Translations under genes and position numbers: made by a program
Origin: an uncultured Candidatus Saccharibacteria bacterium
GTDB taxonomy: Bacteria > Patescibacteriota > Saccharimonadia > Saccharimonadales > UBA7683
NCBI GenBank assembly: GCA_964643895.1
Contig: CAZXUE010000001.1
Coordinates: 17,083 to 81,082, forward strand
Direction: 5' to 3'
DNA: 64,000 nt
Part shown: one piece after another, positions 3,701-60,075 of the stretch
Layout: every line of letters begins with the position of its first letter
Numbering within the stretch: the first letter of the stretch is position 1
The notes under the pieces: model-generated
What the model saw: only the letters and a program-made list of their open reading frames with translations
Database searches by the model: none
Told to the model about the DNA's origin: nothing

Positions 3701-4545
3701 CCCTCGAGCATCTTGAGGCGCTTCATAAGCTTCTTTTTACGCTGGCCTTTGGCACCTTCAACTTCTTCGCCAAGTTCAGCGATCAGCGTATCAAGCTTGA
3801 TCTCATCAAGCATCTTCTGCAAGGCCATGCCGCCCATACCGACTTCAGCGATGTCTTGATACTCATCCGGCATGGCTCGGTAATCTGTTTCAGAGATAAG
3901 ACCACTCTTAGAAAGTGATTCTAGCTGCTGTTTTTTGGTAAGGTACTGATTGGTTACTTCGTCGATTTCTTTACTTTGAGCTTCGGCCAAAGCCTTTACG
4001 TCGGCGCCTTCAGCCTCAGCCTCTTTTTCAAAGCGGGTTTTAATGGCGACTTTCGCTGCCTCAAGCTCAGCTTCCGCGTCTGCCAGAAGCTGCTCCTTCT
4101 TCTGCTCGTCCACATTAATAATGACGTACGAAGCAAAGTAAACAATACGCTCTAAGTTTTTCACAGTAATATTAAGCAGCAAGCCAATAGGGCTTGGTGT
4201 ACCTCGGAGGAACCAAATGTGTGCCACCGGAGCAGCCAGGCCAATGTGGCCCATACGTTCACGTCGGACAATTGACTTAGTGACAAGTTCGCCGTTCTTG
4301 TCAACTGCTGCTTCTCGCGAACGTACACCTTTGTATTTTGCGTCATGCGGATTAATGTCTTTAACTGGACCAAAGATGCGTTCGCAGAATAAGCCGTCGC
4401 GTTCTGGCTTTTGCGTACGGTAGTTGATGGTTTCCGGTTTTGTTACCTCACCGTAGCTCCAATCGAGAATGTCGCTGGGGCTGGCAACTACCAGTCGAAC
4501 AGCATCAAAATCGGTCATTGTAGTGGTAAATAGACCTGGTCTCAT
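745..4545 (-). CDS. rpoC: DNA-directed RNA polymerase subunit beta'
   Basis: 1266-1295 aa with conserved NADFDGD, the [23 protein letters not shown] N-terminal region and a C-terminal clamp. I chose the start at 4545 because GGAGGAGG (the last rpoB codons) lies 6 nt upstream of that ATG. Alternative ATGs are at 4518 and 4632. Confidence 0.95.
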
Positions 4546-4546
4546 A

Positions 4547-7500
4547 TTACGCCTCCTCCTCTGTCTCGGGCGTGGCCACGAGATCGTCATCATCTTGATT
4601 ATCGTCAGTTGCAAGTGGGTCATTAGTCGCACTATCAGAGGTGCCTATGTCATCAAGTACTTCAAATTCACTAGCTACCATTTCTTCAGTCACATCCATC
4701 GGCGTTGCCTCGGCTGTTACTTCTGGTAGATTTTCAGCTTCTTCAGCAACGGTCGCTTCAAGCACTTCCTCAGCGTCAACTTCAATACCGTTTTCATTGA
4801 TTAAATCAACTCTCAGGCTTAAGCCTTGGAGCTCTTTCACAAGTACGTTAAAGCTTTCTGGAATTTTTGGTCCCACAATTGGTTCTTGCTTGATGATGCT
4901 TTCATAGGCTTTTGAACGGCCGTAGACGTCATCAGACTTCAGCGTCAGCATTTCTTGCAAAGTATTGGCAGCGCCGTAGGCTTCGAGTGCCCATACTTCC
5001 ATCTCTCCAAAACGTTGACCACCATTTTGAGCCTTACCACCAAGCGGCTGCTGGGTAACCATCGTGTATGGCCCGATACTTCGAGCATGAATTTTATCAG
5101 CGACCATGTGGTGCAGCTTGATAATGTGCATTACACCGACTGAAACACGTTCTTTAAAGTATTCACCAGTTCGGCCGTCAATTAACGACTGTTTGCCATC
5201 TTCAGGTAAACCAGCCTTCTTGAGTTCGGCCTTAATAGCATCGACTGGTACACCATTAAAGGCCGGGGTTGCAACCTTGTATCCAAGTGCACGCGCTGCC
5301 ATACCAATGTGAGTTTCAAACAGCTGACCGATGTTCATACGTGATGGCACACCAAGCGGGTTAAGCACGATATCAACAGGCGTACCGTCTTCCATAAATG
5401 GCATATCTTCTTCTGGCATAATGCGGGCGATGACACCCTTGTTACCATGCCGCCCCGCCAACTTATCACCAACCGCAATCTTACGCATTTGTGCAACAAA
5501 CACCTGAACCTGCATTAACACGCCTGCTTTAAGATCGTGACCGTTCGCGCGGCTGAAGATCTTTACGCCAACAACCTTGCCGTGCTTACCGTTACTCATA
5601 CGCTGAGAGGTATCACGAACGTCCTTGGCTTTTTCACCAAAAATTGCGCGAAGTAGACGCTCTTCCGAACTTAGCTCTTGCTCACCCTTTGGCGTAATTT
5701 TACCAACAAGGATATCGCCAGCTTTCACTTCTGCGCCAATGCGAACCACACCATTTTCATCGAGATGACGCAGACTTTCTTCAGACACATTTGGAATATC
5801 GCGAGTAACGATCTCAGGGCCAAGCTTAGTTTCTCGCACCTCAACCATGTAGTCGGTAATGTGGACAGATGTTAGTTCGTCATCTTCTACCAGCCGTCGA
5901 GAGATAACAATAGAATCTTCAAAGTTATAACCATTCCATGGCATAAATGCCACCACTAGGTCTTTACCGAGTGCGAGTTCACCATCTTCCACACTCATAC
6001 CCTCAATTATTACGTCGCCAGCCTTCACTTCGTCACCAGTGCTAACAACAACTTTTTGGTTCATGCTTGAACCTTCGTTTGTGCGAACAAAATGCTGTAG
6101 TTTGTAAGTTTTAGAGGTCTTCTCGTATTTCACGATAACCTCATTGCCATCAGCCTTCGTCACCTTACCGGTACTTTCAGCATAAATAACCTGGCCGCTA
6201 TTGGCTGCCACAATGGCTTCCATACCCGTGCCAACCACTGGGGCTTTGGTTTTAATCAGCGGAACAGCTTGTTTTTGTTGGTTTGAGGCGATGAGGGCAC
6301 GACCCACGGCATCCTTTTCGGCAAATGGAATGAGTGATGCAGTTGAACCCAAAATTTGGTTACGTGCAGCATCCATGTGAGTTACTAATTCGGCGTCAAC
6401 CTCTTCAGGCTGCAGTTTCACACGAGCCGAAACACGTTCGTCTTCAAAGGTGCCGTCAGCTGTAAGCTCAAGACCAGCTGACGCAATAACAGCCCGTTTT
6501 TCTTCATCAGCATCAAGATACACAACCTCTTTGGTAACTTTACCGTTTTTTACCACGCGGTAAGGGGTTTCAATGAATCCGTAATCATTAACACGAGCAT
6601 GCGAACCCAGGTTGAGCACCAAGCCAATGTTGGCGCCTTCAGGCGTCTCTACCGTACAAAGACGGCCATAGTGAGTAGCATGCGCATCGCGCACTTCAAA
6701 GCCAGCACGTTCGCGCGAAAGACCACCAGGACCCATCGAACTCAAACGGCGCTTGTGAGCAAGTTCTGAAAGTGGATTAGTTTGATCCATAAATTGTGAA
6801 AGCTGTGATGAAGCGAAGAACTCGCGAACCGCAGCTACAATTGGACGTGCGTTAATTAGTTGCGCTGGGGTTACCGTTTCAATTTCAGACATACTCATGC
6901 GGTCTTTGGCGTTGCGCTCCATTCGCAGGAGACCAATACGGAATTGGCGCTGTACGAGCTCGCCAACCAACTTCACCCGGCGATTTGCAAGGCTATCAAT
7001 ATCATCTGGTGCTTCTTGTGTGTTGTTCAGGCGAATAATTTCTTTCACAATGGCAACTAAATCGTCGAGGCGCATAACGCGGTTTTCGGCCACGTTCGCA
7101 ACATCGATATCAAGCCGCTTATTCATCTTGTAACGGCCAACACGGGAAAGATCAAAGCGTTTAAAGTTAAAGAATACATTTTCAATCAGGCTGCGGGCGT
7201 TATCAACAGTTGCAAGATCGCCAGGGCGGATACGGCGATACACCTCAATCAGCGCATCACTGTTGCCTTTACTTGGGTCTTTTGCCAGTGTTGCTTCAAG
7301 GTAACTGACCTCACCATTATCAACATCCTTAAAGAGCTCTTTTAGCTGCGCATTTTGCGAGTACCCGAGCGCACGAAGTAGTGTGGTAACAGGAAGCTTA
7401 CGGCGGCGGTCAATTTTTACATAAATTGCACCGTTGGCCGCTGTTTCAAACTCTAACCACGCACCACGGCCGGGGATCAGCTTGGCGCCGTATACATTCC

Positions 7501-49909: not shown

Positions 49910-50173
49910 TTAGTTCTCGAGTGTTTGTTTGATGTTTTCTGAAATATCATTAATAAAGGGTACGCTATTAAACAGTGACAGTCCCCACAGAATAATAGTC
50001 ACTATAATTGCGGCTCCAATTATTGAACCAACACTGAAGAAGATACCCCGAAAGAAGTTTTCGATATATAAACGCTTTTTACTCACATAACCCGCCGCCA
50101 ACAGATATTCAAGAGCTTGCACGGCAGCCTTTTCGTCTATTGATGGCTGTTTTTTTGTTGTATGCTTACTCAT
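49910..50173 (-). CDS. small membrane protein (87 aa)
   Basis: One strongly hydrophobic helix (IFFSVGSIIGAAIIVTIILWGL). Confidence 0.45.
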   Translation of the reverse strand: MSKHTTKKQPSIDEKAAVQALEYLLAAGYVSKKRLYIENFFRGIFFSVGSIIGAAIIVTIILWGLSLFNSVPFINDISENIKQTLEN

Positions 50174-50362
50174 AATAACCCTTCCCTATTCTTCAGGATC
50201 AAAAGGAAACCCTGCCTCGATAGCTTCATCAAATCTGGGTGCATTCGCAGCAACTACTCCAGCTAATAGTAGTACGAGACTTCCTGCTACCCCAAGCGCT
50301 TCTCTAGCCGACTTCCCGACTTTTTCTACTAAAGATGGTCGGGTTTCTGTGCTCATAAATCT

Positions 50363-50776
50363 TTACTTTGTGGCGTTCTTTACTTTTGTAGCAATTTTAT
50401 TCTTGAGAGCAGCCAGATCCTTGAGAAGCTGGTCAATTGTCGCATCATCATTATCGTCATCACCACTTTTTATTGAAGTGATTGCTGCTTTTACACGCTC
50501 TTTCAGCTCATCTGCTTTTTTGCCGAGCTCTTCAGCCTCTTCCTTCGCTTTACCTTGAAGCTCTTTGGCCTTGGCTTTTGCTTCATCAGAAAGTTTTCCA
50601 AGCTCTTTATGGGCCTCTTTTAATTTTCGTTCAGCTGAACCTTTAATTTCACCTGCTTTATTCTTAATATCCTCGCGAGTTTCCTTACCGCTTTTTGGCG
50701 CGGTCAACAAACCAGTTACCACGCCCGCTACTGCGCCAATAATGATACCAAGACCAAATTTTTTACCTTTTGCCAT
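50363..50776 (-). CDS. YtxH domain general stress protein
   Basis: GLGIIIGAVAGVVTGLLTAPKSGKETREDIK is the YtxH signature, followed by a Lys/Glu-rich coiled-coil tail. Confidence 0.75.
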   Translation of the reverse strand: MAKGKKFGLGIIIGAVAGVVTGLLTAPKSGKETREDIKNKAGEIKGSAERKLKEAHKELGKLSDEAKAKAKELQGKAKEEAEELGKKADELKERVKAAITSIKSGDDDNDDATIDQLLKDLAALKNKIATKVKNATK

Positions 50777-50778
50777 AT

Positions 50779-51024
50779 TTATGCACCTTTCTTATGGTTC
50801 TTAACTGCCTTCTGAACGGCATCAAATATATACTTCCCTGCAACCGCCGGGCTCATAAACTTAGAGATATTTGAAGCATTCTCAACAACAGATTCCGCCT
50901 TCTCAGAAATTCGTTTGATTGATTTTATAACCTTGAGAACATATACGACGGTAATGATCGTAAGTAATAATGCTAACACCAAGAACGAGCTGAGAATAAT
51001 AACCAAAATTTCAAATGCATTCAT
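50779..51024 (-). CDS. DUF948-like small membrane protein
   Basis: An N-terminal TM helix followed by a helical region. It pairs with YtxH, as in the Bacillus ytxG/ytxH locus. Confidence 0.55.
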   Translation of the reverse strand: MNAFEILVIILSSFLVLALLLTIITVVYVLKVIKSIKRISEKAESVVENASNISKFMSPAVAGKYIFDAVQKAVKNHKKGA

Positions 51025-51065: not shown

Positions 51066-52514
51066 CTAAATTTGGAGTAGCTTTTTGATAATCTGCTGCG
51101 TCAACCCAGGATTGGCTTGGCCTTTAGACTTCTTCATAACCTGTCCGACCAAAAAACCAATGGCTTTCATCTCGCCATTTTTCACATCTTTCGCCGCTTT
51201 GGCATTTTCAGCCAATACTTCAGCTACAATCTTCTCAATTGCGCCCTCATCCGAAACTTGTAACAGATTTTTTTCTTCAGCAAGCTTTTCGGGATCGACA
51301 CCTTCAGTGATAACACCAACCAAAAGTTCCTTTGCATTTGTTGAGCTAAGTTTGTCCTGGGCCACCATCTGCGCAAGCCCTAGGAGGCCATCTTGCGCCT
51401 GTGGAACCTGCTCCCAGCTTAAAGTCCCATCACCCACAAGCTTCAGCACTTCTCCAGTAAGCCAATTGGCAATGGTCTTTGCGCTTGATTGATCGTTCTT
51501 TGCAATACTTACTACGAAAGTGGCGATAGATGGTTCATCTATTAAAGTGTCCGCTTGCGCAACAGCAACACCGAGCTCAGCAAGCCCTGCTCGCAGTTCA
51601 TGAGGCATTTTTGGCGAACTTGCCTGAAGACTTGCAATGTATTCATCAGTAAGTACAATCGGCGGCACGTCGGGTTCCGGCATATAGCGGTAATCGTGGG
51701 CATCTTCTTTCGTACGCTGCGAGAAGGTTTTTTGTTTGGCATCATCCCAGCCACGAGTTTCTTGCACTATTGGCTCACCTTTTTCCAACTGTTCAATCTG
51801 GCGAGAAACTTCATATTCTATCGATTTCTCAACTGCTTTGAACGAGTTTAAATTTTTAGTTTCTGTTCTGGTGCCAAGCGCATCAGTTTTACTGACGGAG
51901 ACATTTACATCAAACCGCATATTACCGTGATATAAATCGACATCGCTAACGCCAGCATATTTCATTTGAAGATAGAGTGCTTTAGCGTATGCTTTTGCCT
52001 CGGCGGCGCTATGCATGTCAGGCTCCGAAACTATTTCTAGCAGCGGCGTACCTGCGCGATTGAGATCTACGAGTGAATAATCTTTGCCTGCTGGATGAGT
52101 GGATTTACCGGCGTCTTCTTCCATATGAGCGCGAGTAATGCCAATTTTTTTAGCCTCGCCATCAATTATAATCTCAACCCAGCCACCAAGGATGATCGGC
52201 TCTTCAAACTGGCTAATCTGGTACCCTTTGGGCAAATCCGGGTAAAAGTAATGTTTACGGTCAAACTTAGAAAACTTTTGTGGAGTTGTATTAAGAGCAA
52301 ATGCTGCTTTGGCCGCCAACTCAATAGCTTTTTCATTAAGAACCGGAAGTGCTCCGGGCATGCCAAAGCTCACATGCCCAACAGTAGTGTTCGGTGCTTT
52401 GCCACGAGCATCATTTGCCTCACCAGCAAACAACTTACTCTTGGTTTTCAGCTGCACATGGCACTCAATTCCAATTGTCGCTGTATATTGCTTTTTGATG
52501 TCGTCAGAAATCAT
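51066..52514 (-). CDS. gatB: Asp-tRNA(Asn)/Glu-tRNA(Gln) amidotransferase subunit B
   Basis: GatB N-terminal cradle domain and a C-terminal YqeY-like domain (…LVGQVMKKSKGQANP). Confidence 0.93.
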   Translation of the reverse strand: MISDDIKKQYTATIGIECHVQLKTKSKLFAGEANDARGKAPNTTVGHVSFGMPGALPVLNEKAIELAAKAAFALNTTPQKFSKFDRKHYFYPDLPKGYQISQFEEPIILGGWVEIIIDGEAKKIGITRAHMEEDAGKSTHPAGKDYSLVDLNRAGTPLLEIVSEPDMHSAAEAKAYAKALYLQMKYAGVSDVDLYHGNMRFDVNVSVSKTDALGTRTETKNLNSFKAVEKSIEYEVSRQIEQLEKGEPIVQETRGWDDAKQKTFSQRTKEDAHDYRYMPEPDVPPIVLTDEYIASLQASSPKMPHELRAGLAELGVAVAQADTLIDEPSIATFVVSIAKNDQSSAKTIANWLTGEVLKLVGDGTLSWEQVPQAQDGLLGLAQMVAQDKLSSTNAKELLVGVITEGVDPEKLAEEKNLLQVSDEGAIEKIVAEVLAENAKAAKDVKNGEMKAIGFLVGQVMKKSKGQANPGLTQQIIKKLLQI

Positions 52515-52906
52515 TACAAAGCCCTCAGGTCTTTTAGTGATCGTTTGAATTTTCTTATTGCTCGTTCAAATTCTGAGCGGGCTATTTCGGCACCTGGCTC
52601 GTGGACTATTCTGTTGCGTAGTTTATGCGCACGCCACACTCCATCGATATCACTCAATAACCCTGCCGCGTTATTGAGCCTTTCCCCCATGGTTGAACCG
52701 CGAATTCCGGCATGCCGAAGCGCCTGATCAACCAAACTATCAGCGGCAATGAGCGCAACGGTGGTATTATTTTCTGACTCGATTTTATCCCAGTGCTTTT
52801 GAAAGTGTTGCTTATTCAGTCGAGGTTTTGAAAAGCGTGCAACCGCCGCCAACAAAAGCAGCAAGCTCGCTGCAACTAGTACTAATACGATCATACTGCT
52901 ATCCAT
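52514..52906 (-). CDS. membrane-anchored small protein with HEPN-like Rx4H motif, embedded in gatCAB
   Basis: N-terminal TM (IVLVLVAASLLLLLAAV) and a C-terminal AHKLRNRIVHEPG. There is an 8-nt overlap with the gatA stop and a TAATG overlap with the gatB start. Confidence 0.6.
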   Translation of the reverse strand: MDSSMIVLVLVAASLLLLLAAVARFSKPRLNKQHFQKHWDKIESENNTTVALIAADSLVDQALRHAGIRGSTMGERLNNAAGLLSDIDGVWRAHKLRNRIVHEPGAEIARSEFERAIRKFKRSLKDLRAL

Positions 52907-54329
52907 GTAACACGTCCTCGATCTGCTTGGAAATTATGAGGAGCTCCTTGTCGTGAAGTTGCGGCGCAATTACCTGCAGGCCAACTGGTAATCCATCGGC
53001 TTTTTGGCAAGGCACGCTAATAGCCGGCACCCCAGCCATACTTGGACCGACTGTCATAATATCTCCCAGATACATAGCAAGTGGGTCGCTCGAATTTTCA
53101 CCAATTTTAAATGCAGTTGTTGGCGCTACTGGGCCGACAAGAAAGTCCACGGTTTGAAACACATCATTAAATTCATTGATTAATTTGGTACGCACCGTCT
53201 GGGCTTTTTTATAATATGCGTCGTAATAGCCGCTGGAGAGTACGTAGGTGCCGATCATAATGCGACGTTTTGCCTCAGTACCAAATCCCTGTTGACGTGC
53301 AATAGCGTAACTATCATCAAGCAATTCGGTATGATTTGCATGATGCCCGAAACGCTGTCCGTCATAACGGGCAAGGTTAGAGCTCACTTCAGCTGGACAC
53401 ACAATATAGTAAACTGCTAGAGCGAGCGGCAAACTTGGCAAGCTTACTTCAACAATTTCCATACCAGCAGCTTTTAACTTTTCAATACCACCTTCAATTG
53501 CCGTGCGCACTTTTGGGTCAAGCCCTTGGCCAAAATATTCTTTAACAACGCCAACTTTGATGTCTGGTGTCTGGCTTTTGACGTTCGAGACAAGGTAGCT
53601 GTCTTGTCTTTTAACTGTAGTGCCATCGAGCGGGTCTTGGCCCGCTATTACATCAAGTACTAATGCCACATCCTCTACTGAGTTAGCTATGGGCCCAATT
53701 ACGTCAGTACTGCTTGCCATTGCAATAACACCGCTACGTGAAACAAGGCCATAGCTTGGTTTCAAACCAACCACACCGCAGAAGCTCGCAGGCTGGCGAA
53801 TTGAACCTCCCGTGTCAGTTCCTAACGAGAACGGAGCCAGCTGGAGGGCAACGCTTGCCGCCGAACCTCCAGAAGAACCGCCGGGAACATGTTTGATATC
53901 ATGCGGATTCTTGGTAACCATAAAATCACTATTTTCGGTGCTTGCACCGTGAGCAAATGCATCAAGATTAGCCTTAGCCACACAGATGGCGCCTTCTGCC
54001 TCAAGTTTTTCAATCGCCGTGGCTTGATATGGAGCATCGAAACCTTTAAGGATATTACTTGCGGCTGTTGTATCGGCACCAAATACAAGAAAATTATCCT
54101 TGGCAATAAACGGCACCCCTGCCAATCGGCCGGCATTTTCACCCTCAGCCACTTTGGCATCAATTTCATCTGCACGTTCTCGGGCTCGATCTTCAATCTT
54201 CGTAATAATCGCCTCGAACTCTGCGTGTTCATCAATCAGCTTGAGCGATTTTTCTACTAACTCTTTTGCAGATACTCTACCTATATTTACCTCAGCTGCA
54301 ATTTCAGAAATCATCTTCCAGGTTGTCAT
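52899..54329 (-). CDS. gatA: Glu-tRNA(Gln) amidotransferase subunit A
   Basis: Amidase signature GGSSGGSAASVA with the Ser-cisSer-Lys triad context. Confidence 0.93.
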   Translation of the reverse strand: MTTWKMISEIAAEVNIGRVSAKELVEKSLKLIDEHAEFEAIITKIEDRARERADEIDAKVAEGENAGRLAGVPFIAKDNFLVFGADTTAASNILKGFDAPYQATAIEKLEAEGAICVAKANLDAFAHGASTENSDFMVTKNPHDIKHVPGGSSGGSAASVALQLAPFSLGTDTGGSIRQPASFCGVVGLKPSYGLVSRSGVIAMASSTDVIGPIANSVEDVALVLDVIAGQDPLDGTTVKRQDSYLVSNVKSQTPDIKVGVVKEYFGQGLDPKVRTAIEGGIEKLKAAGMEIVEVSLPSLPLALAVYYIVCPAEVSSNLARYDGQRFGHHANHTELLDDSYAIARQQGFGTEAKRRIMIGTYVLSSGYYDAYYKKAQTVRTKLINEFNDVFQTVDFLVGPVAPTTAFKIGENSSDPLAMYLGDIMTVGPSMAGVPAISVPCQKADGLPVGLQVIAPQLHDKELLIISKQIEDVLHG

Positions 54330-54331
54330 AC

Positions 54332-54640
54332 TTATCCGATCATTCGTTTCACTTTTATATGATCTCCTTCAAGCGCTGGCAGGTTCTTGAAGAGCTCTTC
54401 TTGCACCACCTGAGTAGTTACTTCATCGGCGCGAGTGGCGTTTTTATCTTGGCTCGTGAGGCCAGTCACTTGGTAGGTTGGCTTGAGACCCTCTACATCA
54501 ACTGCGTCAAGTTGAGCTACGTAATCTAGTATTGCACTGAGCTCTTTCTGATAAGATGCGATTTCTTCTTCAGAGAGCCGCAACCTGCTCAAACGTGCCA
54601 GCTTTAAAATATCTTCTCGAGACAGTTTCATATCAACCAA
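54332..54640 (-). CDS. gatC: Glu-tRNA(Gln) amidotransferase subunit C
   Basis: LSREDILKLARLSRLRLSEEE, ~100 aa, immediately upstream of gatA. Confidence 0.88.
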   Translation of the reverse strand: MVDMKLSREDILKLARLSRLRLSEEEIASYQKELSAILDYVAQLDAVDVEGLKPTYQVTGLTSQDKNATRADEVTTQVVQEELFKNLPALEGDHIKVKRMIG

Positions 54641-54723
54641 TTATAACAGATCCGTAGGTTGCTGTTTGCATTGATATCTAAAAATGCTTATGATAATGAC
54701 AGTTAAGGAAGATCCAGATAAAC

Positions 54724-55866
54724 ATGCGTCTAAAAGAAGTCGGTCTGGGGGTGGCTCGAAAGATTGTGCCTTTGTCGGCCTTAGATTCCTATGCCGCGCC
54801 AGAACAGATGTCCGAAATGAGAGCATTTCTAGCTCCGGACCATATTGAAAAACTCAAAACCGAGAGCGCAATAAAATACTGGGAAGTACTTGGAGAAGAA
54901 GAACTCATTGAAGGTATTGGAACCCTGCGGCGCATTGGTTTTGTTACTGAACAGGGCTATGCGTACTCGGCAGTAATTGGGATACCAGAAAGTCCCGAAT
55001 CAAATGTACCGATTATTGGCACGAGTGCCTGGTTTACCAGCACAGAAGGGCATAACGAGCATACTATTCGAAACATGGTACGAGCTGGTAATTACGTTTA
55101 TTTTGTCGGTGCTGAAGGAAGTTATGAACCAAACTGCGAAATAAGAACAGACGCAATCAGTCCAATCTCACTGGCTAACTCTGCTGCAGCAGTACTCAAC
55201 TTTTCATACCATACAGCCAAAGAGCTTCGCGCTGAAGGCCATGATATCGATACTGAAGATAGGATCATCATTGGAGAGTCTCGGGGTGCAATGGTCGGTA
55301 TGGGTATTGCAGCTCTCGCTGAAGAGTTTCGGCAGCGAATCATCATGGCGGATCTTGTTGCGCCCTGCCTACCGCGTTCCATGGAGCTGGGCGATATCCG
55401 CCACTTGCTTGAACAAGTTGCACAAGAGCCGATTGAAATAGTCCGCCTTATGGGGCGAATGGCCCTTGGCCGCGCACTGCACTATCCGGCAACATTCGAC
55501 CCAAGTCCATACAGCCTCAAACACCAGCTGGCTATAGGTTTTGCTCTTTTCAGTGGTGAGGCTGGCATGCTTGCTCGCTACATTCCCCGAGAAACTCTCA
55601 TGCATGTCACCACTTTCGATAGTGATTTCGCCTCAATGCGCGAAGAATGGGAGCACATATTTACTGACCACGAAGGTGTTCGCATCACACCACTACGAGG
55701 AAGTCACCTTACCCTTGCGGATCTTGAAACGTTACAGTACATTATTGGTCGCAATAAAGCTCTGCAATACTGCCTCGCCAAGAGCATACCTCTTACTCCT
55801 GAGGTCGTCTTCAATACCGCCCACATCTTAGCACCAGATCAAAAGCCGCTTCCGTACGCCGCATAA
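54724..55866 (+). CDS. alpha/beta hydrolase-fold protein
   Basis: GESRG nucleophile elbow (G-x-S-x-G) in a context consistent with an esterase/lipase fold, 380 aa. Confidence 0.55.
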   Translation: MRLKEVGLGVARKIVPLSALDSYAAPEQMSEMRAFLAPDHIEKLKTESAIKYWEVLGEEELIEGIGTLRRIGFVTEQGYAYSAVIGIPESPESNVPIIGTSAWFTSTEGHNEHTIRNMVRAGNYVYFVGAEGSYEPNCEIRTDAISPISLANSAAAVLNFSYHTAKELRAEGHDIDTEDRIIIGESRGAMVGMGIAALAEEFRQRIIMADLVAPCLPRSMELGDIRHLLEQVAQEPIEIVRLMGRMALGRALHYPATFDPSPYSLKHQLAIGFALFSGEAGMLARYIPRETLMHVTTFDSDFASMREEWEHIFTDHEGVRITPLRGSHLTLADLETLQYIIGRNKALQYCLAKSIPLTPEVVFNTAHILAPDQKPLPYAA

Positions 55867-55910: not shown

Positions 55911-56615
55911 CTAACTTGGTGTAAGTATCCAGCGGGTAACCTCTTCACGGAGACGCCGGTATTCTGCCTCCTCAAATTGCATATTAGCGATACAAAAACG
56001 ATAGCCGCTGATATTTGAACAGAACATACTGTCCTGCATGTCCCCGCAATCATGCATCATAAGGCAATCCGTTAAGCCCCCAGATCTGGTGATTCCAAAG
56101 CTATTCGCGCACTGGCCACTATCTTCTGCTCGTATACAAAATGTGAGTGGACCACCTGACTGTGAGGCAAAAACAAACTCACTATCATGAATATTATCAC
56201 TGTAGTAGATATCTTTTGAGCGGAAAATGTCACGGGAATGAAAGACGTTTTCAGATTCTTCCACCATATCAGATTCGGCAACGTTAATACCATCTACCAC
56301 AAACTCCGTGGTTATAGCGTTAATACCGTTCCATTTGGAAAGAATATCCTTTAGATCTTTTATTGGCTGTGTGGCGTAAAGACCCTTTGTAGGTGAAGCC
56401 TCGTTGTTGCGGGCGTTTTCCATTTTGACAAATCGTGAGGCACTAGCCGAAGCACTCCATGTCGTACTGCCATCGGTATAGTCCTTCACTTTATTTGGTA
56501 AGTAGATATCGAAAGTAAACTTCTTAATCGCTTGTTCAAGGCTGAGTGGGTTTTCAACACCAAAAATCTGCTTGATAATCTTATCGAGCGCAATCTTTGC
56601 TTGTTTTTTATCCAT
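55911..56615 (-). CDS. Cys-containing repeat protein, tandem paralog A (234 aa)
   Basis: ~70% identical to paralog B. It has conserved FCIR, CxNSFG, DCxMMHDCGDMQDSMFCSN and FCIANMQFEEAEY blocks. The start lies 13 nt after the paralog B stop, with no SD. Confidence 0.75.
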   Translation of the reverse strand: MDKKQAKIALDKIIKQIFGVENPLSLEQAIKKFTFDIYLPNKVKDYTDGSTTWSASASASRFVKMENARNNEASPTKGLYATQPIKDLKDILSKWNGINAITTEFVVDGINVAESDMVEESENVFHSRDIFRSKDIYYSDNIHDSEFVFASQSGGPLTFCIRAEDSGQCANSFGITRSGGLTDCLMMHDCGDMQDSMFCSNISGYRFCIANMQFEEAEYRRLREEVTRWILTPS

Positions 56616-56628
56616 ACTACAAATTGTA

Positions 56629-57333
56629 CTACGAAACCGGCGAGAGTATCCATTGAATGACTTGGTCTCTTAGCCGATAGTATTCGGCCTCTTCGAACTG
56701 CATGTTTGCAATGCAGAATTGTTTGCCATTCATGTTACTACAGAACATACTGTCTTGCATATCACCACAATCGTGCATCATTATGCAGTTAGTTAAACCA
56801 GCTGAACGAGAAACACCAAAGCTATTCGTGCACCGCACACTATCGTCCGCACGTATGCAAAATGTCACAAAGCCGCTCCGCTGTGAACCAAAAACGAATT
56901 CACTATCAAATACACTGTCACTAAATAGAATGTATTTAGACCTATCAATATTGGTCGATCTAAATACGTTCTCTGAGTTCATAACCATGTCTGATTCCGA
57001 AACATTGAGGGAATCTAATGTAAACTCTGAGGTGGTTAAATTAACGTGTTCCCATTTTGAAAGAAGGTCGGCAAGATCTTTTATAGGCTGCGTGGCATAA
57101 AGACCATCATGTTCATTACCATTATTTCGCGCATTATCAATTTTAATAAACTTAGTAGGATTCGGAGATGATGTCCATGTATCAGATCCGTCTGTACTAT
57201 CTTTGACTTTTTCAGGAAGACGAACATCGAACGCAAATTTTTTGGCGAACTCCTCAATTGAAAGTGGGTTTTCAACACCAAAAATTTGTTTAACAATTTT
57301 GTCGAGCGATTCTTTTGCTTGTTTCTTATCCAT
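56629..57333 (-). CDS. Cys-containing repeat protein, tandem paralog B (234 aa)
   Basis: Collinear with A and C. The N-terminal ~25 codons are ~80% identical to A at the DNA level. Confidence 0.75.
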   Translation of the reverse strand: MDKKQAKESLDKIVKQIFGVENPLSIEEFAKKFAFDVRLPEKVKDSTDGSDTWTSSPNPTKFIKIDNARNNGNEHDGLYATQPIKDLADLLSKWEHVNLTTSEFTLDSLNVSESDMVMNSENVFRSTNIDRSKYILFSDSVFDSEFVFGSQRSGFVTFCIRADDSVRCTNSFGVSRSAGLTNCIMMHDCGDMQDSMFCSNMNGKQFCIANMQFEEAEYYRLRDQVIQWILSPVS

Positions 57334-57345
57334 GCTAAGAGTGTA

Positions 57346-58050
57346 CTACGAAGTAGGTGAAAGTATCCATTGCACAACTTGTTGACGCAAATGTTCGTAC
57401 TCTTGCTGGGTAAACTGCATGTTCGCTATGCAATATTGACGGCCTCGCATGTTGGTACAAAACATACTGTCTTGCATGTCATAGCAATCGTGAATGAAGA
57501 ACGAATTATTGATTTTGCTGCTCCACGAAACACCAAAACTATTAGAACATTCGCCGCTATCTTCAATTCGTATGCAAAAAGCGTTGCCGCCAGATCGAGA
57601 ACCCGCTGCAATAAACTCTGAATCTTCTACGCCATCTGAAAAGAGTACATTTTTGCTGCGGCGGATATCTTGCGATCTATAAACGTTTTCGGATTTCAAG
57701 ATACCATCACTTTCTGCAACACCTATAGATTCAATTTCCCTCTCGGTAGTGGTTAAGTTAATTTCGTTCCACTGCGCCAGAAGCTCCTGCAGATTATTGA
57801 TCGGCTGTTTTTCGCGAAATCCATCGTTTTGCTCGTAGCGTGCTCGCGCATTTTCCATTTTTATAAACTTAGTTGGGTTAGTTGAGGAAGCCCAGGTTGG
57901 CTCGTTGGTTGTAGAATCATAAACCATTTGTGGCAAACGCACATCAAAAGCAAACTTTTGCATAAACTGCTCAAGACTGAGTGGGTTTTGATAGCCACAA
58001 ACCTGGCCAATAATTTTATCGAGTATTTGCTTTGCTTGATCGGCGTTCAT
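57346..58050 (-). CDS. Cys-containing repeat protein, tandem paralog C (234 aa)
   Basis: ~45-50% identical to A and B, with the same length and block order. AGAGGA SD 7 nt upstream. The start lies 12 nt after the ATPase stop. Confidence 0.75.
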   Translation of the reverse strand: MNADQAKQILDKIIGQVCGYQNPLSLEQFMQKFAFDVRLPQMVYDSTTNEPTWASSTNPTKFIKMENARARYEQNDGFREKQPINNLQELLAQWNEINLTTTEREIESIGVAESDGILKSENVYRSQDIRRSKNVLFSDGVEDSEFIAAGSRSGGNAFCIRIEDSGECSNSFGVSWSSKINNSFFIHDCYDMQDSMFCTNMRGRQYCIANMQFTQQEYEHLRQQVVQWILSPTS

Positions 58051-58062
58051 ACTATATCCTCT

Positions 58063-60075
58063 TTACTTTTTAAGTTTTGCTCTACTTGATGATTGACTGG
58101 CTAGAATATCCTGCAAATTAATAAATTCCCTTTGGCCAACAGCCGCTGTTGCCTGAGCTGGGTGTCCGCTTGAAGCTGTGCCAGAACTTGCAGACTGAGG
58201 GACAGCTTGCCGCAAGGCCTCACGCTGTTGCTGCTGTTCAACAAATCTTGCAGGTAGCTCTTGCTTTTGTTCATACGTTTTAAGTTCAGCTTGTTTGTGT
58301 ATGACTGGTGCAGCCGTAACATCAAGCGTACGAGCCTTCACACAAGGTAGAAGCTGGCCGCCAGCTGAAAGGCGCAAAAAGCACTCCCGCGGATGCAGAG
58401 TTGTGAGCATTTGTACCCGCACATCTGATTGTTTTAAGCCCTTTTCCTTCTCGCCTTGCAAGATTTCTTTGGGAATCTCGATATTAAGGTTGCCCTCTAG
58501 TGCACGAGCATCTTCCTCTGAAACTTTAAAGACGTAGTAATTGTAGACATTGGTGAAGATAGCAGCCTGAAGATTCTGCTCGATCTGACCAAAATACTGC
58601 TGCGTTAGTACCACGGAGAGACCGAACTTACGAGCCTCGGCCAAAATTTGCGCCAACGCTGGATTTTGCACCACCGAAACCTCATCAACTATTAAAATGA
58701 CCTTCTGATCGAAAGCCCGTGCCTGCGCTAGAAGAAAAATCTGCTGAATTAGCAATCCGGCAATGGTTTTTACTACCTTCTCGCCCATACTGACCTTATT
58801 GAGTGAGAAAACTGTTAAGAAATTACTGTTTACAATCTGGCCAATCGAGGTGGCGCTTTGATCGTTGCCAGCTAAACTTGGTTGCATTTGCATCTCATCG
58901 ACCAACGAGGCGATTGGCGAGATTGCCTCGTTATAAAATTTAGTACGAATTTCATTAAAATCAGTGCCGAAGAATCGAACAATATTTTCTGGTACGTAAC
59001 CTTGAACATGCGAAAGCAGCTGATTACGGTATTCGATATCTGTTACAAAGCGCTTCAGCGAATCGAGCGACATAACCTGCGCAGTCATCAAAACATACAG
59101 TGAGAACCTTAAGACTCGCTCTAGTTTTGGATTGTGCTGGTCACTAAGCAGCGATTTAAAGAGCGTGCCGGTTAGTTCAGTCGCGGCGGAGATATCGGTT
59201 CCTGTGCCGCCAAAAAGTTCGGTTCCCTCATTTTGGCCTTTAAAGTTGATAACCGTACTCTCTTGAATTCCCTTTAAATCATCTTCCAGCGAGGCGTGTG
59301 GATCAATAACGATTACTCGGTAATTTTGCTTCAAGCCATGAGAATTGGCCAATTTATCCACAAGTAGACTAATCAGTTTGGATTTACCGCTGCCACTAGC
59401 ACCTATGATGAAAGAATGCTTTTCAAAATCGTACGAATTCAGGCCGAGATAGTAATTTTTCGGCAAATATGGAAAAGTATCAACTTCAAAAACGGCACCA
59501 AGGTTTTCGCTCTGCATAATATGCAGTGACTTTTGAATATCGAGATACTTAGTAACCTTTTTGCGCAGATAGCGAGTGTTGGCCGTGAAATCAATTGCCA
59601 GCATAAATGAAGGGAACGCGGCGGCAACTTTATGGTTGATTGTCCAGTTTTTGCCACCATCTTGAAAGTAAAGGTAGCTATGGGTAATGGCTTTTTCAAA
59701 ATTAATTCGACGGCATTTCACTACCAGAAACTGGAGGTCTTTAGCTTTTTTAACCTTATACTTCTCCTTCAAATCAAGAAGATCACCGCCAGCCTTCACC
59801 ACAACCAGCCGCTCTTTGCCAGCCGAGGATGCCGAGGGCAGACCGATCACTTCCGGTTTTACGGGCCGCAAAACTCCTACCTCGATATTATTTGAAAGCG
59901 AGCCAAGGTCGCGGTCACTGAGCACAAAATAACGAATGGTGTTTTCCTCAACCTTAACGATAACCTGAAATTCTTTCAGAACGCCGACATATTGGGAAAA
60001 CACATTATAGAGACGGTTCCAGTCCTCTCTGGTAACCTCGTCTCTCAGCAGGAAAAATTCAAAACAATGTTTCAT
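58063..60075 (-). CDS. FtsK/HerA/VirB4-superfamily P-loop ATPase (AAA_10/DUF87-like)
   Basis: [19 protein letters not shown] (Walker A preceded by a conserved His), VILIVDEVS (Walker B) and [14 protein letters not shown] (the R-K-x-G…TQ motif shared by HerA, VirB4 and FtsK). No TM segments. The ~220-aa N-terminal domain is of unknown type. Confidence 0.8.

Follow-up and report, generated by a model that had tools for sequence, protein, structure and literature searches.

HEPN domains are defined as four-helix bundles of about 100-120 amino acids (aa), often with an insert between helices H2 and H3, whose third helix ends in an Rx4-6H motif, the arginine being directly followed by a polar residue (N, D or H), and whose second helix bears an acidic residue, typically as Ex3[KR] (PMC3710099). 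Those that retain Rx4-6H are RNases (PMC3710099). In bacteria, HEPN proteins are known almost only from conflict systems, that is toxin-antitoxin modules, abortive infection (Abi) and ancillary nucleases of CRISPR systems. The closest described ones are the HepT-type toxins of the MNT-HEPN systems and the anticodon nucleases HepS, PrrC and RloC, whose substrate is tRNA. The present work concerns a 130-aa open reading frame (ORF), hereafter X, found inside the gatCAB amidotransferase operon of an uncultured Candidatus Saccharibacteria bacterium, in a stretch of 64,000 nucleotides (nt) of contig CAZXUE010000001.1 (positions 17,083 to 81,082 of the forward strand), the whole of which is referred to as the window and provides the coordinates given below. 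We conclude that X founds a family of its own in the HEPN superfamily, outside the existing curated families, and that it is encoded in a housekeeping operon.

On the minus strand of the window the genes follow one another in the order gatC, gatA, X and gatB, X overlapping both of its neighbours:

54332..54640, minus strand: gatC (102 aa; Pfam GatC, 2.2e-19)
52899..54329, minus strand: gatA (476 aa; Pfam Amidase, 1.1e-139), the invariant upstream partner of X in the Saccharibacteria and Paceibacteria types described below
52899..52906, minus strand: overlap of the gatA stop and the X start, ATGGATAG (8 nt, read from the DNA)
52514..52906, minus strand: ORF X (130 aa), membrane-anchored HEPN-fold protein as predicted (full-length model confidence given below)
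52512..52516, minus strand: overlap of the X stop and the gatB start, TAATG (1 nt shared, read from the DNA)
51066..52514, minus strand: gatB (482 aa; Pfam GatB_N and GatB_Yqey), located 3' of X in Saccharibacteria only

At the upstream junction, ATGGATAG holds both the ATG of X (52906-52904) and the TAG of gatA (52901-52899), and at the downstream junction TAATG holds the TAA of X (52516-52514) and the ATG of gatB (52514-52512). A Shine-Dalgarno (SD)-like GAGGA is present at 52915-52919, 8 nt upstream of the X start codon, and an SD-like GAGGG at 52522-52526, within the last codons of X and 7 nt upstream of the gatB ATG. A second in-frame ATG (M5, 52894) is found 4 nt past the gatA stop; it is not preceded by any SD-like sequence, would yield a protein of 126 aa and is the start from which some homologues are annotated.

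The protein reads MDSS-MIVLVLVAASLLLLLAAVA-RFSKPR... and carries, in its C-terminal part, WRAHKLRNRIVHEPG with the motif AHKLRNRIVHE. Its parts, as placed by AlphaFold2 (AF2) models and alignment, are the following:

52838..52894, minus strand: predicted N-terminal transmembrane (TM) helix, residues 5-23, MIVLVLVAASLLLLLAAVA (AF2 helix 3-25 and hydrophobicity)
52517..52819, minus strand: HEPN-fold domain, residues 30-130 (AF2 models and Foldseek)
52715..52741, minus strand: acidic D56 and D60 of helix 2, with D60-x3-R64, counterpart of the HEPN Ex3[KR]
52675..52699, minus strand: insert element G70-x-T-M-G-E-R-L77, family-specific, within the H2-H3 insert
52598..52636, minus strand: signature W91-x-A-H94-K-L-R97-N98-x3-H102-E103, with the Rx4H motif at the C-terminal end of helix 3

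The AF2 model reached a pLDDT of 91.6 for full-length X and 94.9 for the soluble domain (residues 27-130), and displays the TM helix (3-25) followed by H1 (32-44), H2 (48-65), H3 (87-102) and H4 (110-126), the H2-H3 insert (66-86) containing a short helix (73-79). Once compared with the PDB by Foldseek, the model gave top matches that were all HEPN nucleases or toxins (probability 0.92-0.99, TM-score 0.5-0.69), namely the HepT toxins 8xdj, 8yuf, 7ae6 and 5yep, then 1wty, AF0298 (2hsb), ST0689 (1wol) and HepS (9oij), the last of which, a tRNA anticodon nuclease, is the neighbour of lowest root-mean-square deviation (2.5 A). Every published HEPN element was found in X, with R97-N98-x3-H102 closing helix 3 and D56/D60 on helix 2. 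Additional evidence comes from the cultivated Southlakia epibionticum, in which a 420-nt gene, SEML1_0535, lies between gatA and gatB (PMC10633639); Table S2 of Wang et al. 2023 (PMC10633639) assigns it to ECOD e1wtyA1 with a DPAM score of 0.99. This assignment is independent support for the fold of X, the orthology of the two being one that we infer from position, size and domain.

When two sets of 150 and 54 family members were scanned singly against Pfam, the most recurrent subthreshold matches were, as counted among the 150, to HEPN_Swt1 (23/150, best E 0.0088), Hypoth_Ymh (14/150, best E 1.9e-4) and HEPN_RiboL-PSP (13/150), with HEPN_DZIP3 and HEPN_Cthe2314 as less frequent weak matches over both sets; Hypoth_Ymh is listed as a HEPN family (PMC3710099). 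A PDB search with a 15-sequence profile gave a marginal match (E 0.43) in which LRN(R) was aligned to the LRNR of a 'HEPN domain-containing protein', and the same search with the 150-sequence alignment returned chance-level matches only, such as RanGAP1. The original prediction, made from the DNA letters alone, had proposed membership in DUF4145 (PF13643), itself a HEPN-type family. This assignment failed in the profile test, with no match at E<=1 for the window protein and no place for PF13643 among the 25 most recurrent subthreshold families of the 150 or the 54 members. It can be added that ProtNLM names SEML1_0535 a 'DUF4145 domain-containing protein' (table of PMC10633639).

Conservation of the signature is close to complete. 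In an alignment of 164 members, W91 and H94 are each found in 164/164, R97 in 162/164, N98 in 160/164 and H102 in 159/164 (97-100% for the motif residues); all five are invariant in the 54-sequence Paceibacteria-type alignment and at least 90% conserved in Peregrinibacteria-type members, that subfamily retaining VWRAHKLRNRIAHEPG. The arginine and the histidine on which the original prediction depended are thus conserved across homologues. On helix 2, D56 is kept in 163/164, D60 in 151/164 and a K or R at position 64 in 114/164. The insert element is likewise retained (G70 162/164, G74 137/164, L77 140/164), as GE(S/T)MGERL in the Paceibacteria type and, one residue shorter, as LGDKL in the Peregrinibacteria type. 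The conserved C-terminal L-G-A-L was also considered as a mere encoding of the gatB SD sequence, an explanation rejected as the main cause since L-G-A-L is equally kept in the Paceibacteria type, which has no gatB downstream.

With regard to topology, nearly all members have a hydrophobic 19-mer (99% of 162 in the Saccharibacteria type, 97% of 99 in the Paceibacteria type). In X the TM helix is directly followed by the basic stretch RFSKPRLNK and, over the Saccharibacteria type, the mean net charge is -0.5 ahead of the helix and +3.2 behind it. Neither a basic n-region nor an obvious cleavage site is present. Because of this charge pattern under the positive-inside rule, together with the lack of an n-region or cleavage site, X is predicted to be a single-pass protein of N-out/C-in orientation, with its HEPN domain facing the cytoplasm.

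Compared with described HEPN families, X comes closest to the Swt1/Abi2-like (PF18731) and Ymh (PF09509) families, its most recurrent weak matches, which share the four-helix bundle with H2-H3 insert, the R-N-x3-H motif and the helix-2 acid. Unlike them, X has a TM anchor and the additional invariant W91, H94, K95 and G-x-TMGERL, matches neither at the gathering threshold and lies in a housekeeping operon rather than in a restriction-modification or Abi context. The HepT-type toxins (8xdj, 7ae6, 5yep, 1wty), its best Foldseek matches, are of about 110-135 aa and of the same fold; X differs from them in having no adjacent MNT antitoxin, in not being mobile or patchy, in its predicted membrane anchor and in a sequence identity of only 11-18%. 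HepS, PrrC and RloC serve in defence, are triggered by phage and have sensor domains or are activated by oligomerisation, whereas X is a minimal domain, constitutive and linked to GatA or Pth. In layout, RNase Y and the HEPN protein C6orf70/ERMARD, the latter proposed for membrane-associated RNA degradation (PMC3710099), present an endoribonuclease-type domain to the cytoplasm from a single N-terminal anchor, as predicted for X; however, RNase Y, which Saccharibacteria also possess, is built on KH and HD domains, and C6orf70 is large and eukaryotic.

The family is large. A word-indexed search gave 14 homologues of X at 35-91% identity, and a profile search over 1.84 billion cluster representatives (clusters defined at 50% identity) gave 3,014 matching clusters at E<=1e-3 and 2,202 at E<=1e-10, with lengths of 125-165 aa in nearly all of the 150 matches listed. 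In a species-level genome scan, relatives were found in at least 542 species genomes, labelled Saccharibacteria or Saccharimonadales essentially throughout. Compared with its nearest genomic relative (locus L006), X displays a non-synonymous divergence (pN) of 0.125 and a synonymous divergence (pS) of 0.80, a ratio resembling that of gatA. X is a real, strongly constrained core gene, and we hold with high confidence the gene, family, fold and context parts of the interpretation taken together.

In the Saccharibacteria type, the order gatA-X-gatB was observed in 84/84 loci for which the contig reached far enough, so that the ORF has not been lost from this junction in any of these relatives. 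gatA and X are spaced by -16 to +4 nt in 75/84 loci, X and gatB by -4 to +3 nt in 68/84; about 14/84 have X-to-gatB spacers of 39-160 nt, and the exceptions are L001, with a PNPOx gene between X and gatB, and L082, with a gap of about 1 kb. At L001 (4049-6818), where the inserted gene belongs to the PNPOx family, GatA is of 651 aa and has a His_Phos_1 (histidine-phosphatase) domain inserted in the amidase.

A second subfamily was found in Paceibacteria (Parcubacteria), in genomes named Yanofskybacteria, Vogelbacteria and Paceibacterota, with proteins of 175-230 aa that have a longer, predicted extracytoplasmic N-terminus and the same core motifs. Here the order is gatC-gatA-X in all 77 of the 77 loci with upstream sequence, with tight junctions, and gatB follows X in 0/73. 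Only one Paceibacteria-type locus of 73 has gatB nearby (L159, 4478-5956), where it is convergent, directly past X on the opposite strand. The gene downstream of X is heterogeneous, the largest class being ComEC-like, and a link of X with ComEC was rejected, ComEC being downstream in only 14/66 loci. Upstream of gatC the gene varies as well among the loci inspected (ligA in two, a YceG-family gene in one). Across the two types, the invariant partner of X is gatA. Regarding the original prediction, the HEPN-like character, the single TM helix and the translational coupling inside gatCAB are borne out by models, motif and junctions, and the two overlaps lie where it had placed them. The obligate co-expression with gatB that it had deduced from TAATG does not hold throughout the family, given the spacers of 39-160 nt, the two loci with a longer gap or inserted gene and the absence of a downstream gatB in the Paceibacteria type.

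In Peregrinibacteria, a third subfamily lies between a gene for a bPH_2-like membrane protein and pth (peptidyl-tRNA hydrolase), in three distinct contexts. X and pth are translationally coupled there, either overlapping or lying a few nt apart. At L173-L176 (about 4300-5950) and L171 the bPH_2-like membrane protein is of about 226 aa and all three genes are tightly spaced; at L171 the ORF upstream of X has a very acidic tail. The stable neighbours of X are accordingly two different enzymes, GatA and Pth, which both act on the ester-linked moiety of acylated tRNAs.

The possibility that X is a toxin, an abortive-infection gene or a selfish HEPN element inserted in an essential operon deserved consideration, since conflict systems account for most bacterial HEPN proteins (PMC3710099) and the structural neighbours of X are HepT-type toxins and HepS. 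Pairwise distances of X were correlated with those of GatA (Spearman 0.67) and of GatB (0.63), compared with 0.76 between GatA and GatB, and none of 300 Mantel permutations reached these values. X diverges only slightly faster than its neighbours, with a mean pairwise p-distance of 0.50 for its soluble domain as against 0.39 for GatA and 0.44 for GatB. It is vertically inherited, co-diverging with gatA and gatB, at a locus that is fixed in several patescibacterial lineages. By tblastn, nothing was found in 50,697 phage records or 72,556 plasmids, and a pattern scan of 2.9 million viral contigs gave no relative. No antitoxin-like or MNT gene adjoins X at the loci inspected, and no significant PADLOC or PHROG family was obtained. 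Consequently, the selfish insertion put forward in the original prediction was rejected, and a toxin or conflict role in general is largely refuted and highly improbable. The other role offered there, that of an RNA-binding accessory subunit, may apply and gains in plausibility from the gene context.

Comparison with L006 also revealed a block of about 1.4 kb (window about 52550-53900, i.e. the 3' two-thirds of gatA and the whole of X) in which nucleotide identity is 58-75%, as against 90-96% outside it (gatC, the 5' part of gatA, gatB and downstream); pS is 0.68-0.80 inside and 0.24-0.28 outside. Judging from these values, the block looks like an imported homologous-recombination tract which carried the 3' part of gatA and X jointly.

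Fitness data are available for the Southlakia gene. Table S1 of PMC10633639 marks SEML1_0535 as 'core family' and 'Patescibacteria enriched' and gives its transposon sequencing (Tn-seq) calls over three passages as GD/GD/ES, from growth-defective to essential, with insertions/normalised reads falling from 5/126.6 to 3/5.9 and 1/2.8, a depletion that resembles that of gatA, gatB and gatC (PMC10633639). X is probably needed for growth. The main text of that paper mentions neither HEPN nor the gat genes, and our literature search found no paper tying HEPN to Saccharibacteria or to GatCAB; the prior record of X consists of two unremarked rows in supplementary tables (PMC10633639).

As to function, the most likely role for X is that of a tRNA-directed RNase or binding factor, because HEPN domains retaining Rx4-6H are RNases and because its two alternative neighbours both process tRNA esters. 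X would be tethered to the cytoplasmic membrane by its one N-terminal helix, with a four-helix HEPN domain of about 100 residues facing the cytoplasm and offering what would be a complete RNase-type site (R97-N98-x3-H102 and D56/D60, plus the family-specific W91, H94 and K95). Made from the GatA mRNA and in step with GatA, it would act on the same substrate class as its neighbours, the acylated tRNAs, which it would either cleave as a metal-independent endoribonuclease or simply bind, thereby serving the quality control of tRNA or its hand-over at the membrane. Such a function would belong to housekeeping and not to conflict. In this picture of a membrane-tethered, cytoplasm-facing factor that shares tRNA as its target with GatCA(B) or Pth, an RNA or tRNA ligand, catalysis, dimerisation and physical contact with GatCAB are all things that we infer. 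We favour it tentatively, at somewhat less than even confidence, its tRNA and RNase parts being much less certain than those that concern gene, family, fold and context.

Several observations weigh against this proposal. Scans of X against Pfam, NCBIfam, PADLOC and PHROGs gave no significant match, and no HEPN profile was reached at its curated threshold; the Foldseek E-values, at only 0.15-0.3, are supportive but without statistical significance when taken alone. In small genomes of high synteny, genes can stay adjacent without being functionally linked, and the Tn-seq depletion of SEML1_0535 may be a polar effect on gatB. Constitutive production of an active HEPN RNase should harm the cell if the enzyme is neither tightly specific nor restrained, and no regulator was identified. 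Finally, the Peregrinibacteria X is not adjacent to gatA, and therefore X is no strict GatA subunit.

The constancy of the gatA-X junction, which is coupled in 161/161 loci of two divergent classes, would also suit a non-catalytic accessory or tether of GatCA(B), in which the HEPN domain would be only a protein- or tRNA-binding module by which the amidotransferase (transamidosome) is localised or arranged at the membrane, and translation in step with GatA would favour assembly. The apparent recombination tract of L006, which holds the 3' part of gatA and X together, agrees with such a role. Among described amidotransferases, mitochondrial GatFAB offers a precedent for an addition to the GatA/GatB core in GatF, an extra, lineage-restricted small subunit. 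GatF, unlike X, replaces GatC and is neither a HEPN nor a membrane protein. Neither the window protein nor the 150 members matched any Gat family of Pfam (GatC, GatA, GatB, GatE, GatF), the GatF model giving a weak match of GatC only. Non-catalytic HEPN domains do exist, for example MtlR and the substrate-binding domains of nucleotidyltransferases (PMC3710099), but the near-invariant R, N and H with the helix-2 Asp form the signature associated with active RNases (PMC3710099). Moreover, in Peregrinibacteria the linked gene is pth instead of gatA, and no GatA fusion was seen among the proteins listed by the searches, whose members are all of 76-234 aa. A purely accessory role is rather unlikely in our estimation.

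The change of partner gene between lineages, gatA in some and pth in another, could on the other hand indicate a housekeeping membrane RNase or regulator unrelated to tRNA amidation, with a part, for example, in general RNA turnover at the membrane or in the envelope, which would simply ride in constitutive translation-factor operons. The TM anchor and cytoplasmic nuclease layout is like that of RNase Y, and in Saccharibacteria gatB also has syntenic neighbours that encode other small membrane proteins (YtxH, DUF5665). However, GatA and Pth both have acyl- or peptidyl-tRNA esters as substrates, a coincidence that chance would hardly produce, and the gatA link outlasts full turnover of the other flanking genes. 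Southlakia encodes RNase Y (non-essential), J, III and P, which leaves no obvious gap for X to fill. This unrelated role appears quite unlikely. The narrower idea of X as a substitute for a missing RNase Y is weakened by the same set of RNases.

The preferred reading, that of a membrane-tethered factor acting on tRNA, can be extended to a more specific form in which X would be a fourth, Patescibacteria-specific component of indirect aminoacylation, docking onto GatCA(B), or onto Pth in Peregrinibacteria, and policing or channelling mis-acylated and peptidyl-tRNAs. It might, for example, destroy Glu-tRNAGln or Asp-tRNAAsn that escape amidation, or hand tRNA substrates over at the membrane. No GlnRS or AsnRS is annotated in the Southlakia genome, the one cultivated Saccharibacterium checked. 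In this specific form the proposal is unlikely to be correct.

Other features of the region are reported here for completeness. A promoter and terminator scan of the gat operon gave nothing above shuffle expectation, and an Rfam scan of the region gave no match. A terminator-like hairpin with a T-run is present inside the codons of the X TM helix (window 52858-52873, minus strand); such sites are just as numerous in the region as expected from shuffling, and it is probably meaningless. A 380-aa ORF without Pfam match (54724-55866, plus strand) is divergent from gatC and shares with the gat operon an intergenic region of about 80 nt (54641-54723), in which the operon promoter is presumably located. 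After gatB comes a run of small membrane-protein genes (49910-51024, minus strand), with ORFs for a TM protein (81 aa), a YtxH-like protein (137 aa), a further product (56 aa) and a DUF5665 protein (87 aa). Synteny of the YtxH and DUF5665 genes extends to other Saccharibacteria (L002, L177), and that of DUF5665 also to L001. Farther away, three tandem paralogous ORFs of 234 aa (55911-56615, 56629-57333 and 57346-58050, minus strand) share 50-66% mutual identity and a Cys-rich C-terminal half, with no Pfam family in the two that were scanned. Just upstream of this triplet, a 670-aa protein (58063-60075, minus strand) with matches to TrwB/VirD4-type coupling proteins and HerA-like ATPases is a putative type IV secretion-like component.

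Taken together, X combines an intact HEPN catalytic signature with vertical inheritance and occurs in at least three patescibacterial lineages, wired to the operon of gatCAB, an essential tRNA-dependent amidotransferase, or to that of pth. The HEPN fold itself is known; what is new is the family, together with its membrane-anchored minimal architecture, its breadth across patescibacterial lineages, its apparent importance for fitness and its constant association with gatA or pth. Because Pfam, NCBIfam, PADLOC and PHROGs all miss it, the family merits a profile model of its own, and Saccharibacteria are now genetically tractable (PMC10633639). Should the functional link be true, it would add a hitherto unknown step or partner to the indirect synthesis of Gln/Asn-tRNA in a large uncultivated radiation, and would provide an example of a 'toxin' fold domesticated for core translation; should X be a fourth component of indirect aminoacylation, it would be the first essential housekeeping HEPN RNase described in bacteria.

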